IMG/VR virus record: IMGVR_UViG_3300030061_000751 | Coordinates: 1 to 57,402 of that record | DNA length: 57,402 bases | Strand: one strand, 5' to 3' | DNA from: a virus | Taxonomy: Duplodnaviria; Caudoviricetes | Shown: positions 3,238-50,318 of the stretch, in pieces | How positions within the stretch are numbered: position 1 is the first letter of the stretch | How the letters are laid out: each line of letters starts with the position of its first letter | Position numbers and translations under genes: made by a program | The notes under the pieces: generated by a model | The model's input: only the letters and a program-made list of their open reading frames with translations | Database searches by the model: none | Told to the model about the DNA's origin: nothing

Positions 3238-3743
3238 TGTTTGGCGTTACCGGCTTTTCAGTAACCACATTTGCCAGCGATCAGGGTGCTGGGCTAGTAG
3301 ATGTTACTGGTGTAGCGGCTACTGGGGGTGTTGGCAGTGTTGTAATTGACGGCGACTCAATTGTATCTGTCACGGGTGTGGCGGCTACCGGATCGGTCGG
3401 CAGTGTTACGGCTACTGGCGCGGCAAATGCTTCTGTTACTGGCCTGTCAGCAACAGGCTCTGTTGGTAGCGTAGAGGTAGACGGCGACTCCATAGTCAAC
3501 GCCACAGGATTGGCGGGGACAGGCGGCGTAGGCTCTGTCACAGTCGTTGAAGGCACGGGGATAAATGTTGCAGTTGGCTCGTTGTCGGCGCAGGGTCAGG
3601 TTGGCGTTGCCTCTGCTACTGGTGCTATTAGTGTGCTGGTAACGGGCGTTGCGGCAACAGGAGCCACATCAGGCGCATCCGTAGTAGCGTGGAACGAAAT
3701 CATACCGAATCAAGACCCGAATTGGACAGAGATAGCGGCATAA
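3237..3743 (+). CDS. G/V/T/S-rich virion structural protein
   Basis: Repeats of VTGVAATG.VGSV; tail module context. Confidence 0.65.
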   Translation: MFGVTGFSVTTFASDQGAGLVDVTGVAATGGVGSVVIDGDSIVSVTGVAATGSVGSVTATGAANASVTGLSATGSVGSVEVDGDSIVNATGLAGTGGVGSVTVVEGTGINVAVGSLSAQGQVGVASATGAISVLVTGVAATGATSGASVVAWNEIIPNQDPNWTEIAA

Positions 3744-32963: not shown

Positions 32964-33037
32964 TGGAAGGGCGAGCGGGGATCGAACCCGCCTATCTGGA
33001 TTTGCAGTCCAGTGCATAACCACTCTGCCACCGCCCT
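32964..33037 (-). tRNA. tRNA-Cys (GCA)
   Basis: 74-nt cloverleaf: acceptor AGGGCGG/UCGCCCU, anticodon arm CUGGA-CUGCAAA-UCCAG, T arm GCGGG-UUCGAUC-CCCGC, discriminator U, encoded CCA. Confidence 0.95.
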
Positions 33038-35700: not shown

Positions 35701-36597
35701 TTATGCGGCCTGTTGAAGTTCGACATCATCAGAGAATGAGTCGAGATGCTCGTATGCCGCCTGAGCTAGCTTGGCGGCGCGGTAGATGGCCTTGCTGTCA
35801 TCACGCAGAGCCTGCATCCAGCTCTTGAGGTAGATGGCATGGTCAGGGCGAGGTGTCTGCTCCAGACCGTGAGCCGCGCAGGCGAAGGTTGCAGTGAGTT
35901 CAGCGACCAATTCTTCGAACCCATAGTCGGCACTGCCAAACCTGCCAGATTGGTCACGGTCAAGCTGTGAGGTGTGGCCTGTTGCATGACCAAACTCATG
36001 AAACAGAGTGCCATACGCGGTGCAGGTTGCGGTGGCATCGCCGATGCTGACAAATGAATCGAAATCAGGCATCCCGATGTGGTGCAGGGCGGGGTTGTAG
36101 TAAGCGCCAGACTGCCCGTATTTGACAGCAGGCATCCCCATGCCCACCCGTGCATTCTCAAGCCACTGGTCAATCTCAGCGACACGCTCGACGGGGTTGA
36201 GCACTGGGGTGGCGTCCAGCTCGGGAGCGCCGTCTACCTGCTCGGCATTGAATACCGTGTACACCTTGGCAAACGGTATCTTTTTCTTTGAGCCGTCATC
36301 TTCTTCGATGTCGAGCATCTTAAAGAAGATGATCTTAGTGCCGCTCTCGCCCTTGCGGACCTGAGCATTGAGTGACTTCCACTGCTTGTAGGTAGCCCAG
36401 CGGGTATCGGTAAAGGTGGAGAGCATCATCAGCACGATCTGATTGATGCCCTTGTAGGCGTTGCCGCTGACAATGTTGGTCTGCAAGCCTGCGGAGGTGT
36501 TGGTGAAAAACGGCTTGGTGTAGTCGCTCAGGCTCACCTCTTCGAGCTGTGCCAATACGGTGTTGGTGACTACTTCATACGCTGTTTGCTTTGCCAT
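35701..36597 (-). CDS. ardC: ArdC-family antirestriction protein (ssDNA-binding domain plus zincin metallopeptidase-like domain)
   Basis: Y.GIN, WATYKQW...A.VRKGE.G, YTVFNAEQ, AYY.P..H.I.MP, HEFGHATGH..L.R, Y..EELVAE, HA.YL.SW...L..D. Start moved to ATG 36597. Confidence 0.92.
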   Translation of the reverse strand: MAKQTAYEVVTNTVLAQLEEVSLSDYTKPFFTNTSAGLQTNIVSGNAYKGINQIVLMMLSTFTDTRWATYKQWKSLNAQVRKGESGTKIIFFKMLDIEEDDGSKKKIPFAKVYTVFNAEQVDGAPELDATPVLNPVERVAEIDQWLENARVGMGMPAVKYGQSGAYYNPALHHIGMPDFDSFVSIGDATATCTAYGTLFHEFGHATGHTSQLDRDQSGRFGSADYGFEELVAELTATFACAAHGLEQTPRPDHAIYLKSWMQALRDDSKAIYRAAKLAQAAYEHLDSFSDDVELQQAA

Positions 36598-36623
36598 GAT
36601 CGGTGACTCCTCAGTCATCAGGG

Positions 36624-36686
36624 TGGATTCCCATGACGCCCCGTGGGGCGTTTCGGCCTGTATCCAGCAGGCCATCATCAGATGGG
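36624..36686 (-). ncRNA. Type I hammerhead ribozyme (HHR-2) with loop II pseudoknot
   Basis: CCCAU CUGAUGA U GGCCUG-CUGGAUA-CAGGCC GAA ACGCCC-CACG-GGGCGU C^ AUGGG AAUCCA; predicted cut between 36635 and 36634. Confidence 0.92.
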
Positions 36687-37076
36687 TTAGGCGGCGTCCA
36701 CTTCGACACCTTCATAGGTATCAGCGAACACGGTACGCACAGCGGCCTGCGAGGCTTTAGCCTCAGACCATCTGCGCTTCTTCGCGGCGTGCTTTGGGGT
36801 GCGGGTGCGACTGAACTGCACCGGCTTCAGCGGATCGTCGGTGTAGCTGTCATCATCAACCTTGCCATACAGGCCGCGATGATCAGCAATCCACGCGCCG
36901 TCATACTCGGTGACATCGTAGATTGCAGAGTAGATGTTGACCTCGGACAGATCGTAGTAGGTAGTCCAATCTGTCAAGGCCATGAGCATCTGCTCGACTG
37001 CCTCGCACGGTGTGTCACCGTATCCCCATGAAGAACCGCCGCCGATTGAAACGAAAGAAAGGTATTGCGTTTTCAT
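36687..37076 (-). CDS. Hypothetical protein (first early ORF)
   Basis: SD motif TGACTGAGGAGTCA; its stop abuts HHR-2 stem I. Confidence 0.7.
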   Translation of the reverse strand: MKTQYLSFVSIGGGSSWGYGDTPCEAVEQMLMALTDWTTYYDLSEVNIYSAIYDVTEYDGAWIADHRGLYGKVDDDSYTDDPLKPVQFSRTRTPKHAAKKRRWSEAKASQAAVRTVFADTYEGVEVDAA

Positions 37077-37096
37077 ATTTGACTCCTCAGTCAGTT

Positions 37097-37390
37097 ATGA
37101 GTGGGGTTGAGCGAAAGTGCTCACGCATACCCAACGCGCTCGGCGGTGGGCATGGTGTGAAAACTCTCTGATCAGCCACTCCACCCTACAGCGCAGGTAT
37201 GGGATAGCTGATGCATCAATGCGGGGTCAGTGATGCGCTGACTGTCACCCTGCTGGTAGGCATGAGGTGCCGCTTGCTTGCTCAAGACAGGACGGCTTGA
37301 ATCGCCCCGAAGTTGGCCGTGTGGTTTGTAGGCCCACCCCTGCGGGCGTAAGGTGCCCCGTATCCCCCAACCTCGTTATCAGGTTGGTGT
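37097..37390 (-). ncRNA. Candidate large multi-pseudoknot structured RNA (~290 nt)
   Basis: No ORF in the track; about 12 nested stems and 6 crossing pairings identified by hand (see findings). Confidence 0.75.
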
Positions 37391-37394
37391 GGTA

Positions 37395-37423
37395 ACGCTA
37401 CAGGATGCAAAGTCATAAAACAA
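37395..37423 (-). promoter_or_regulatory. Candidate sigma70 promoter for the early transcript
   Basis: TTGTTT-17 nt-TAGCGT; predicted start falls just before the first hairpin of the RNA. Confidence 0.4.
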
Positions 37424-37498
37424 CACCCTGAGACAAATGATTTTCAGACAAGTCTTATGACTATATATAGCAAATTAAATTGCGAGCAGTGGGGAAAG

Positions 37499-37586
37499 GT
37501 GTTGACACAGTGATGAGAAGTGTGATTGCGATCATGAATCACGTAAGTCATTGATATGTCAGGAATTAAAAAGTGTTGACAAAGTG
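37499..37586. promoter_or_regulatory. Direct repeat GTGTTGACA(C/A)AGTG x2
   Basis: Copies at 37499-37512 and 37573-37586, each containing TTGACA. Confidence 0.55.
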
Positions 37587-37603
37587 TAATTTACCAAAAA
37601 ACA

Positions 37604-37619
37604 CTGTATATACATACAG
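37604..37619. promoter_or_regulatory. LexA (SOS) box, gamma/betaproteobacterial type
   Basis: CTGT-ATATACAT-ACAG, one mismatch from the E. coli consensus CTGTATATATATACAG; lies in the divergent control region. Confidence 0.75.
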
Positions 37620-37819
37620 GTCTCTAAATGGCCCGTGAGCGGCTTTTAAGGGGTTACCCCTTGCGTTGGTATTGGTGACAGCTAATCGCTCCCACAGCGC
37701 TTCCTATGGCCCTTGTCGAGGGTGTGACTGTTTTTGGGTACTTCTTAGCTTTTTGTAGGAAAGTGGTTGATTTCGGGGTCATGGTATGCTGGGGGTATTG
37801 AATCAGTGAGGTGATCATC

Positions 37820-38299
37820 ATGGGTAAGACACGGGACAATTTGACTCCGAAGATGTTGCATTTTTGCCGATGCGTTGCCGCAGGCATGGCGTATGCCGAT
37901 GCGTACAGAGAATCGCACGCCGTTACTGCAACAGGGAAGAGCGCGACACACAGAGAGGCGGCGAGCAGGTTGATGGCGAGGGCTGACATAAGGGCAAGGG
38001 TGGACGCCTTAGTGAAGCAGAGAGAGCGGTCTGTACTAGCCTCTGCCCTTTCAGACAGAGAGAGAGTGCTATCGAAGCTCAGGCACTGGCTTGATCACGC
38101 AGAGAGCGGTGACTCGAACCGCATCAGGAGTGCTGAGTTGCTCGGCAAGTCAGTCGGCCTATTCAAAGATGTGGTGGAGACTACCGACAGCCGGAGCAGT
38201 GAGGAGCTGTTGGCCGAGCTGGACGCAATGCTGGAGCAGACCGAGCCAGACCAGCCGGAAGCCGAGCGGGATCAGCCGGAGTCTGGCCAGCTCCACTGA
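37820..38299 (+). CDS. terS: Terminase small subunit
   Basis: LTPK...F......G....DAYR, ASRL.....I..R, E.VL..L, AELLGK..GLF; RBS GAGGTG before ATG 37820. Confidence 0.8.
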   Translation: MGKTRDNLTPKMLHFCRCVAAGMAYADAYRESHAVTATGKSATHREAASRLMARADIRARVDALVKQRERSVLASALSDRERVLSKLRHWLDHAESGDSNRIRSAELLGKSVGLFKDVVETTDSRSSEELLAELDAMLEQTEPDQPEAERDQPESGQLH

Positions 38300-49779: not shown

Positions 49780-49835
49780 CCCTGACTAATTGTTCCATGT
49801 GGAACATTAGACACTAGCCACGACAGGAGAATCAC

Positions 49836-50318
49836 ATGGCTAATACTACATTCAGCGGTGCTGTCCGCTCTGAAAATGGTTTTTCAGATATCACCAAAAA
49901 TTCCACTACTGGCTCTATTACCAGCACCATGACGTTATCCACCTACGAGGCGACGATTACCGTGGCTAATGGTGCAACGACAGGTAAGGAAGCCGCTATT
50001 GGCATCCCCTCAAACTTTATCCCTATGGGTGTGTTGGTCGCTGTTACCACAGCTTCTGCTAACTCCGTCAACCTTAACGATATTGGCACCGATGCAGACA
50101 CTGACGGCTTTGTCGATGGTATCTCTGCCGCTGTTAACTCTACGGGCTTCAAAGGGTTTTTCCCCTGCAATGGCGTTCTCGGGATGTCCGGTGGCACAAC
50201 CACTGCGTCTACAGAAACAGCAGACGAAGTAGAGATTGTGCTTTCTGGCGATCCGGGTGGCGACACAGTTGTTGTCCTCAAGTTTTTCGGCATCTCTACC
50301 ACTTCAGACGCATCATAA
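49836..50318 (+). CDS. Virion structural protein
   Basis: MANTTFSG.VRS.NGF start; T/S/G-rich. Confidence 0.65.
   Translation: MANTTFSGAVRSENGFSDITKNSTTGSITSTMTLSTYEATITVANGATTGKEAAIGIPSNFIPMGVLVAVTTASANSVNLNDIGTDADTDGFVDGISAAVNSTGFKGFFPCNGVLGMSGGTTTASTETADEVEIVLSGDPGGDTVVVLKFFGISTTSDAS

Follow-up and report, generated by a model that had tools for sequence, protein, structure and literature searches.

A covarying non-coding RNA and a pseudoknotted cassette ahead of the first gene of a phage operon that carries a hammerhead ribozyme

Introduction

What kind of RNA stands at the head of the leftward operon in the virus record IMGVR_UViG_3300030061_000751, and is it a leader that stays on the mRNA or a product in its own right? 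The window (the whole stretch of DNA that was analysed, 57,402 bases) is the complete or nearly complete record of a marine tailed phage, with an estimated completeness of 98%, and its genes include those for a large terminase, a portal, a primase/helicase, an exonuclease and a Sak-like annealing protein. By large terminase, its nearest cultured relatives are the marine phages 023Pt_psg01 (59.9% identity) and Pelagibacter phage HTVC027P (59.0%). The structured RNA sits within a 730-bp divergent intergenic region, one flank of which is the leftward operon, opening with an open reading frame (ORF) of 129 aa and continuing with an ArdC-like anti-restriction gene. A preliminary description, drawn by eye, had proposed for positions 37097-37390 one RNA of ~290 nt with about six pseudoknots, perhaps a ribozyme. 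Comparison of homologues resolves this stretch instead into two elements, a core RNA of ~217 nt and a cassette of ~60 nt behind it, here called module D, with one supported pseudoknot each. Judged by sequence searches, the two appear to be RNA families without a described relative. It is proposed here, with a probability of roughly 0.5, that the core serves as the non-coding first 'cistron' of an operon punctuated by ribozymes and is freed as an RNA of ~220 nt, module D being either the cutter or the cut site.

Homologues and fold of the core RNA

The homologue set comprises 38 distinct sequences (window included, duplicates removed) from marine viromes and metagenomes, collected by pattern scans and nhmmer. 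The first homologues came from loci fetched via the small terminase and ArdC, and the family was then gathered by pattern scans of viral contigs and metagenome contigs (45 metagenome stretches). Mean identity to the window lies between 55 and 85%, and three groups can be distinguished: a short type of ~220 nt (the window and nine others), two or three intermediates, and a long type of ~400 nt, which has a larger 5' domain and two insertions compared with the short type. The elements of the core in the window are as follows.

37172..37388, minus strand: core structured RNA, short type, ~217 nt (38 distinct homologues)
37387-81 / 37373-67, minus strand: 5' hairpin H1, CCAACCU/AGGUUGG, short type only
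37358-55 / 37347-44, minus strand: helix H2, GGGC/GCCC (132/140 cells canonical; both sides changed in 4/4 pairs)
37343-38, minus strand: invariant core segment GCAGGG
37337-34 / 37324-21, minus strand: variable hairpin of the core, GUGG/CCAC
37308-03 / 37292-87, minus strand: helix P_c, CGGGGC/GUCCUG, with loop GAUUCAAGCC (212/228 canonical; 2/6 pairs changed on both sides)
37269-65 / 37250-46, minus strand: helix P_d, CACCU/GGGUG (190/190 canonical; 2/5 pairs changed on both sides)
37242-38 / 37230-26, minus strand: helix P_e, GUCAG/CUGAC (190/190 canonical; 3/5 pairs changed on both sides)
37236-31 / 37218-13, minus strand: core pseudoknot, P_e loop GCAUCA with UGAUGC just 5' of P_f (covarying)
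37211-04 / 37179-72, minus strand: closing domain P_f, UCAGCUAU/GUGGCUGA (277/280 canonical)
37197-93 / 37189-85, minus strand: inner hairpin of P_f, CCUGC/GUAGG (holds in 12/12 short-type sequences, with compensations)

Counted with the pseudoknot, the six core helices have canonical pairs in 97.2% of cells, and 19 of the 34 pairs have changed on both sides; not one of 500 column shuffles reaches either value. For the core pseudoknot, counted over seven positions, 246 of 266 cells are canonical and four of the seven pairs have changed on both sides, while over six positions the canonical share is 96.5%, which none of 500 shuffles equalled. Its natural partner sets include CAUACCA/UGGUAUG, CAUGCCA/UGGCAUG, CAUAUCA/UGAUAUG and CGUGACA/UGUCAUG. 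Compensatory changes in the inner hairpin of P_f come from three loci (L176, L007 and L186). Between the helices lie conserved single-stranded segments (GCAGGG, CGGCCAGC, GAUUCAAGCC, UGAGCAA and CCCGCAUUG), and the energy model pairs an invariant GCGG (37273-70) with CCGC (37224-21), an arrangement that would close P_d and P_e as a three-way junction. No switch between alternative structures was found in the core. P_e had stayed hidden in the first covariation scan because MAFFT set a one-base difference in P_e-loop length inside the stem, and the pairs were therefore counted from fixed sequence anchors; the RNAalifold fold of the long-type MAFFT alignment was unclear in its 5' half.

Further variation was seen at the edges of the family. 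In long-type loci, for example L213 1195-1600 (minus strand), the sub-motif AGACCCCCAUNGGGAUAGGC has two copies, one in the 5' domain and another in the P_d insertion, and a third AGACCCCC stands in the P_f insertion beside a GNRA-capped hairpin; the repeated sub-motif looks like a recurring tertiary module. A divergent core variant in L125 (980-1500, minus strand) and L169 has CUUAAAGCC in place of GAUUCAAGCC, UAAGCAA in place of UGAGCAA and an extra hairpin in P_c, and was missed by the main pattern; it bears on a possible pairing of the P_c loop with the UGAG downstream. Two metagenome contigs, L200 and L202, end in what we take to be sequencing-adapter sequence, so that they presumably stop inside the RNA for technical reasons.

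The scans also mark where the family was looked for. The first pattern (TGAGCAANCAAGCGGC) returned 93 stretches with only three true members, a later viral scan (GTGACAG..CCCGCATTG) returned 50 stretches with zero new members, and three stretches from genome contigs fitted neither the core nor the module D profile and are chance matches. A blastn search of 37050-37450 against 50,697 phage records gave no match, and the first 30 kb of one cultured relative (MW574966.1) hold no core, no module D and no convincing hammerhead.

What remains of the single pseudoknotted RNA

The preliminary drawing was accurate as to the letters: the 12 segment pairs that were checked (six nested stems with coordinates and six crossing pairs) all lie on the minus strand where it had placed them. 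As evidence of structure, however, dense complements found by eye carry little, because dinucleotide shuffles give equally many. The native 294 nt contain 14 Watson-Crick 6-mer complements against 12.2 +/- 4.2 in shuffles, and the native count is matched or exceeded in 34 of 100 shuffles. Homologues give a sharper answer. Compensatory changes occur in the helices of both the core and module D, and they support three of the nested stems as drawn (GUCAG/CUGAC, CAUGCCCA/UGGGUAUG and UGAGC/GCUCA). Two more, CCAACCU/AGGUUGG (present in the short type only) and GUGG/CCAC, are compatible with the homologues, and UUCAAG/CUUGAG, whose columns are fixed by the search pattern, is complete in one of 38 sequences.

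Six of the 12 nested stems are contradicted or displaced. GGGAUA/UAUCCC is complete in two of 12 short-type sequences, CGCCC/GGGCG likewise in two of 12, CACCUU/AGGGUG in one of 11 and GAGUGG/CCACUC in two of seven. CGGGG/CCCCG holds in nine of 12 short-type but zero long-type sequences and is broken in L192 exactly where H2 compensates, and GGCA/UGCC, confined to the short type, overlaps a helix that holds in 38 of 38. Among the six proposed pseudoknots, two are real and show compensatory changes (GCAUCA/UGAUGC in the core, GAGAGU/ACUUUC in module D). A further one, AUCAGC/GCUGAU, is a real helix but a nested one, being part of UCAGCUAU/GUGGCUGA. The other three are unsupported: CCUACA/UGUAGG is complete in one of 11 sequences, ACGG/CCGU in one of 12, and GCAGG/CCUGC, present in 11 of 12 and in the short type only, is outdone by the local hairpin CCUGC/GUAGG, which holds in 12 of 12 with compensation.

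Folding energy, coding potential and known families

That the stretch makes a structured non-coding RNA from the minus strand, as had been claimed, is borne out by the covarying homologues, by the lack of any ORF above 44 aa and by a strand-specific folding advantage. Over 37077-37400 the minus strand has a folding z of -3.98 (one of 100 shuffles as stable) and the plus strand one of -0.50 (32 of 100). The longest ORF in the span has 44 aa, and ORFs of at least 55 aa that touch the core or module D in relatives differ in start and frame, so that no conserved ORF explains the region. ARAGORN found zero tRNA or tmRNA genes in 36500-37800, and neither a tRNA nor a tmRNA model of Rfam matched.

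The RNA class had gone unrecognised, and a search of 36900-37700 against Rfam 15 (4227 families) agrees, with zero matches even at E<=10. The families covered include GOLLD, ROOL, HEARO, OLE, group I and II introns, RNase P, 6S, riboswitches and the phage pRNA; likeness to GOLLD and ROOL is thus an analogy only, as their models do not match. Nor does 37097-37390 contain a hammerhead by Rfam (E<=10) or by a regular expression for core plus stem II. In the whole window at E<=1, the only further Rfam matches are a tRNA, Mu-gpT-DE and a chance match overlapping the tRNA, and in four homologous loci only a tRNA and hammerheads matched. In this family an Rfam blank has limited weight, since the hammerhead of L183, detected by regular expression, was missed altogether. 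In the full-text literature no description of the core or of module D was found; recent preprints were compared by terms only, and their supplements may list such motifs.

Two other identities were considered and rejected. A group I-like element had rested on the likeness of two short motifs, with no Rfam support and no exons. A single-stranded-DNA promoter of the plasmid leading-region type, prompted by ArdC and a weak DUF3150 match, would be a long hairpin, whereas the fold here is branched and pseudoknotted; moreover, phage DNA enters the cell double-stranded.

Module D, a cassette between the core and the gene

Behind the core stands a second element, which in turn is followed by a linker and a hairpin that presents the Shine-Dalgarno (SD) sequence.

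37108..37168, minus strand: module D, ~60-nt H-type pseudoknotted cassette (46 distinct copies)
37168-63, minus strand: 5' strand GAGAGU of module D, pairs with the loop of hairpin 2
37153-47 / 37133-27, minus strand: hairpin 1 of module D, AUGCCCA/UGGGUAU (alignment A3)
37123-19 / 37112-08, minus strand: hairpin 2 of module D, UGAGC/GCUCA, whose loop ACUUUC (37118-13) pairs back to the 5' strand
37077..37107, minus strand: linker AACCCCACUC... and SD-presenting hairpin UGACU-GAGG-AGUCA (37093-37080); start codon at 37076-37074

The fold of module D is carried by 46 distinct copies in 42 non-duplicate loci, the window holding a single one. In alignment A3 the paired share of cells is 97.0%, which drops to 30-53% once the partner is slid, and 10 of 26 pairs have changed on both sides. 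In the pseudoknot helix the proportion is four of six pairs, with partner sets such as AGAGC/GCUCU, GGGAGC/GUUCCC and AAAGC/GCUUU beside GAGAGU/ACUUUC of the window; the linker UU..CACC within the module is invariant. Module D is not tied to the core. It occurs in three core-less loci (L006, L137 and L163), and a profile search found a second copy 300-1200 nt downstream in many relatives, before the second or a later gene. As had been described, the stretch runs up to the SD of the first gene, where GAGGAG precedes the ATG at 37076, and the SD hairpin is kept across the 46 copies, with one pair exchanging G-C for C-G (32 CG, 10 GC). Module D and the type I hammerheads are alike in being followed by a AAUCCACCC-like linker and then an SD-presenting hairpin.

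Module D has no Rfam match at E<=10, the small self-cleaving classes (twister, twister-sister, pistol, hatchet, HDV-like and hairpin) included (window copy and two L183 copies, a search of limited sensitivity). Its order of strands (5' strand, hairpin 1, then hairpin 2 looping back) does not seem to fit the layouts of twister, pistol, hatchet, twister-sister and HDV-like ribozymes, whose Rfam models do not match it either. An HDV-like layout was rejected on this strand order. A tRNA-like substrate of RNase P was rejected as well: the CCA-like tail is 3 nt out of register, and as the same tail follows type I hammerheads it belongs to the linker rather than to module D. By its context, module D may be a new self-cleaving or processing element. 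That the core could be the enzyme which cuts module D was also discarded, the core persisting in three loci that show no module D.

Hammerhead ribozymes and exchange within the slot

The window carries a hammerhead of its own, one gene further down the operon.

36630..36686, minus strand: type I hammerhead ribozyme, lying past the stop of the 129-aa ORF and before the ArdC-like start (regular-expression scan and covariation)
Parts of the window hammerhead: stem I CCCAU/AUGGG, CUGAUGA, stem II GGCCUG/CAGGCC, GAAA, stem III CGCCC/GGGCG

The cleavage triplet of this hammerhead is GUC, with the cut predicted after C36635. In nine distinct copies of the type I hammerhead (alignment A4), 97.4% of cells are paired and seven of 17 pairs have changed on both sides; the copies covary in all three stems, with CUGAUGA, GAAA and GUC invariant. 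Rfam scores the window copy under gathering (Hammerhead_II 20.6 bits, E 0.035, gathering 37; Hammerhead_1 12.3 bits, gathering 34). In three relatives (L080, L007 and L186) a type III hammerhead occupies the slot of module D directly behind P_f. With RF00008, L080 reaches 39.8 bits (E 1.2e-5) and L007 29.2 bits, both below the gathering score of 48.5; AGUC, CUGAUGA and GAAA are intact. The Rfam scores of these hammerheads and of the window copy are depressed by a U insertion behind CUGAUGA and by short stems. By their catalytic core, three stems and NUH triplet, 36630-36686 of the window and the 3' modules of these three loci are hammerheads as read from sequence.

Behind the core, the 38 sequences have module D in 32 cases, a type III hammerhead in three and the contig end in three, i.e. 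module D in 32 of 35 loci and a type III hammerhead, 2-6 nt behind the core, in three of 35. By a motif scan, 17 of the 42 non-duplicate loci of the family have hammerheads between early genes. The same exchange of elements is seen before individual genes.

Before ArdC-like genes: module D in 6 loci, type III hammerhead in 3, type I hammerhead in 3 (window included), nothing in 1
Before the 325-aa MNMQQS family: module D in 7 loci, type III hammerhead in 1, type I hammerhead in 1 (200 nt away), nothing in 3
Before MSFIET/MSFLDN genes: module D in 1 locus, type III hammerhead in 2, type I hammerhead in 0, nothing in 2

Type III hammerheads between genes (e.g. L007 859, L117 12920, L221 1138 and 511) are preceded by a GC-rich hairpin, GGGGCCAUGCGCCCC, and then CAAGGUC; after a cut, the upstream mRNA would thus be left with a protective hairpin at its end. 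Two type I hammerheads of the window kind lie at 3376-3492 and 5343-5459 of L004, a locus fetched via the 129-aa protein and lacking the core, so that ribozyme punctuation extends past the core-bearing phages.

The core itself is also exchanged: close relatives with a small terminase (TerS) 89% identical carry another long leader in its slot. Non-coding leaders of ~330 nt between promoter and module D were seen in L006 (1875-2200, minus strand), L137 (11130-11456, plus strand) and L163 (1425-1760, minus strand). By nhmmer the L006 leader is similar to no other locus; by eye, it and the L137/L163 leader have a common stretch, GGUGACAC...AGGUAA...GCAUCCGA. The folding z of these leaders is -1.65 and +0.78, and they may be further RNA families. 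A slot that exchanges long leaders has the pattern of an exchangeable specificity element.

Promoter and genes around the core

The claim that the RNA starts right after a sigma70 promoter stands in so far as a conserved element lies at the right distance; a consensus promoter scan did not recover it.

37395..37423, minus strand: candidate sigma70-type promoter of the leftward operon, -35 TTGTTT (37423-37418), 17-nt spacer, -10 TAGCGT (37400-37395)

In 10 of 10 short-type relatives a TTGnnn-17-TAnnnT element recurs with its spacing unchanged, and long-type relatives have a near-consensus TTGACA or TTGCAC, a 17-nt spacer and TATAAT or CAYYGT. The core RNA starts ~7 nt past the promoter, the distance from promoter end to first helix in relatives being 6-8 nt, and this promoter-proximal place is held in every locus for which upstream sequence is available. 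Transcription would then start near 37388, within a few bases of the first hairpin. No intrinsic terminator was found in the operon stretch scanned, the single terminator-like site lying upstream and on the opposite strand. In the divergent control region, two copies of TGTCAACAC were seen upstream of the promoter (window 37490-37600, minus strand); L117 and L137 retain this box too, which is possibly an operator.

The genes that immediately follow module D come from at least 15 unrelated families, most of them without a Pfam match, which argues against gene-specific cis-regulation; the functionally coherent set of downstream genes that a riboswitch or gene-specific leader would have is not seen here. 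Relatives of the 129-aa protein (72-78% identity, L002-L005) have no core RNA upstream.

Proposed release of the core

Conservation of the core, its covarying structure, its position behind the promoter, the exchange of the element at its 3' side and the window's own hammerhead are observed, and they would fit together as follows. The ~217-nt core would be transcribed from a host-type promoter with a start at ~37388. Its 5' end would be secured by a hairpin and its 3' end by P_f, with the three-way region locked by the pseudoknot from loop to downstream strand. Module D begins two nucleotides behind the core and gives way to the short linker and the SD-presenting hairpin. Module D and the type III or type I hammerheads would interchangeably cut the operon before individual, highly variable genes, and the core would thereby be severed at its 3' boundary. 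In three relatives this cut would be made by the hammerhead; in the window it would fall at module D or be made by it. Given the type of promoter and the ArdC-like gene, the operon is presumably an early one, and the freed core would act early in infection, in trans, as a stable RNA. Most plausibly it would bind a host or phage factor for regulation or counter-defence, because an anti-restriction gene is nearby and relatives have a different leader in the same slot; any single such function, taken alone, would be doubtful at best.

Several points weigh against release. In 32 of 35 loci no known cleaver lies between the core and the first ORF, and module D is without any hammerhead core motif. 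Module D might just as well serve as a stabiliser, in translation or as a binding site for protein, the core then staying a 5' untranslated region. The folding energy of the core alone (37170-37390) supports a fold weakly, with a z of -1.82 (14 of 200 shuffles as stable), and one long-type homologue has a z of +0.69. The homologues are mutually related, so that the shuffle controls overstate their independence, and the anchored registers behind the pair counts are the author's own choice. The metagenome pattern fixes GAUUCAAGCC, GU and UGAGCAA, and those columns, which cannot vary, carry no information. The consensus promoter scan gave zero sites in the window, whose own hexamers (TTGTTT and TAGCGT) are weak and under the threshold. 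No cultured phage with the core RNA was found, as far as blastn against phage records and 30 kb of one relative can tell. Among public sequencing runs, no RNA run was found to contain the stretch, and the one run compared with it covers 36789-36939 only, by a single contig; transcription of the RNA, its timing and its ends are all predicted from sequence.

Alternative explanations

The core could be a cis-acting leader of the operon instead, either a put-like antiterminator or polymerase modifier or a sensor of a host factor or metabolite, with module D and the SD hairpin forming a translation-initiation cassette. A known system of this kind is that of the put RNAs of HK022: they are promoter-proximal antiterminators at the heads of early operons, made of two stem-loops of ~70 nt, and stay with the polymerase. 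Like them, the core lies promoter-proximal at an operon head, a position that is obligatory wherever upstream sequence is available, and it is independent of the genes that follow, as an operon-level device would be. The conserved single-stranded segments would suit a binding surface, and the 32 loci that show no known ribozyme between core and mRNA would leave such a leader attached. However, in three of 35 loci a complete hammerhead directly behind the core (2-6 nt) would sever it. The core is, moreover, a large pseudoknotted fold of 217 to ~400 nt, far above the put-type size, the operon stretch scanned showed no intrinsic terminators, and no switch between alternative structures was found. 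A cis-acting leader is unlikely, while still the rival that survives best.

A bolder form of the release proposal is just as unlikely. Here module D would be a new class of self-cleaving ribozyme, by which marine phages, in alternation with type I and type III hammerheads, divide early operons into mRNAs of one gene each. The core would be a new class of large trans-acting phage RNA, freed by that cut, that disarms or takes over a host function within the first minutes of infection and is exchangeable among related phages for other large RNAs of the same slot.

A single RNA of ~290 nt, with some six pseudoknots and acting as a large ribozyme of a new class, is largely refuted and has become very improbable. 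Its segments exist, two of its six pseudoknots covary, and the RNA is placed among self-cleaving ribozymes. Half of its nested stems and half of its crossing pairs fail in homologues, however, and its short complements occur at chance level; its 3' third is an independent cassette with 46 copies, many without the core, and relatives put a hammerhead in place of that third.

Still less credible is a DNA-level element (a replication origin, packaging site or operator region) that folds as RNA by chance. A 730-bp divergent intergenic site beside a small-terminase gene, with repeated TGTCAACAC boxes upstream, would be a natural place for one, but the folding advantage is strand-specific, the compensatory changes keep G-U pairs that are A-C on the opposite strand, promoter and SD lie at the two ends, and the modular partners are the same as those of hammerheads. 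The least credible explanation is that of no function, a long 5' untranslated region or decayed gene kept through phage kinship alone: many homologues are indeed close relatives (mean identity to the window 55-85%) and the folding z-scores of the core are unimpressive, but flanking genes are swapped among loci while the RNA is retained, 19 of 34 pairs have changed on both sides with pairing kept, and no conserved ORF lies within the RNA.

Comparison with known systems

GOLLD and ROOL are long, ornate, conserved RNAs of phages and prophages, known mainly from metagenomes and of unknown function. The core differs from them in being smaller (217 to ~400 nt), in its fixed position at an operon head, in the processing element behind it and in matching neither model. 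The CI RNA of P4 and the C4 RNA of P1/P7 are excised from the start of an early-operon transcript and then act as free regulators, which are allelic between related elements; they are ~80 nt long, tRNA-like and cut by RNase P, and they pair with the same transcript. The core, in contrast, has at least 217 nt and is not tRNA-like, and the cutters in its neighbourhood are hammerheads.

In prophages, multiple hammerheads have been described as flanking single variable genes, ardA among them, which suggested processing into gene-length mRNAs (Perreault et al. 2011, PMC3088659). As far as that description goes, the operons studied here are alike in several respects: small RNA elements flank single genes or short blocks of varying identity, with an anti-restriction gene included (ardA there, ArdC-like here), hammerheads are present (types I and III in the family, one in the window), and the role proposed is the cutting of a long phage transcript into gene-length mRNAs (PMC3088659). 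They differ from the prophage operons, in the form described there, in having a non-hammerhead element, module D, in most slots and a large non-coding RNA as the first unit. Twister was recognised as a ribozyme, according to the account in PMC6765202, through gene neighbourhoods that it has in common with hammerheads, and module D, like twister before it, is a structurally unrelated motif in hammerhead neighbourhoods. It is this context that makes RNA cleavage at the 3' boundary of the core a concrete and testable idea.

Dozens of natural sequence variants stand behind each of the two RNA families. Should module D cleave itself, one more ribozyme class would have been found by hammerhead context; if it is instead cut by a host RNase, or blocks one, it would represent a non-ribozyme solution to the same task. 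The operon shows its punctuation unusually completely (promoter, large non-coding RNA, cutter, gene, cutter, gene), with anti-restriction cargo, and bears on the question of why phages punctuate operons with ribozymes. The core would be one of few large phage RNAs for which the sequence predicts where transcription starts and where the 3' end probably lies, and this makes its function directly testable.

Other features of the window

The genes on the two flanks of the divergent region are the following.

36687..37076, minus strand: opening ORF of the leftward operon (129 aa), unmatched in Pfam, PHROG and PADLOC
35701..36597, minus strand: ArdC-like anti-restriction gene, ArdcN (PF08401, 7.7e-30) and zincin-like metallopeptidase (PF18818, 3.4e-35)
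37811-38299, plus strand: small-terminase-like gene, on the other flank

The mechanical ORF of the ArdC-like gene begins at 36678, but the true start is likely the ATG at 36597 (MAKQTAYEVV): the 27 extra codons correspond to the hammerhead, linker and SD, and orthologues start with MAKQKR or MAKQQR. A PADLOC scan of 10 operon proteins returned zero families. A tRNA gene (60.7 bits) lies inside the leftward operon at 32967-33037 (minus strand), and a Mu-gpT-DE RNA (RF03012, 51.8 bits) was observed in the structural module, at 49780-49838 (plus strand).

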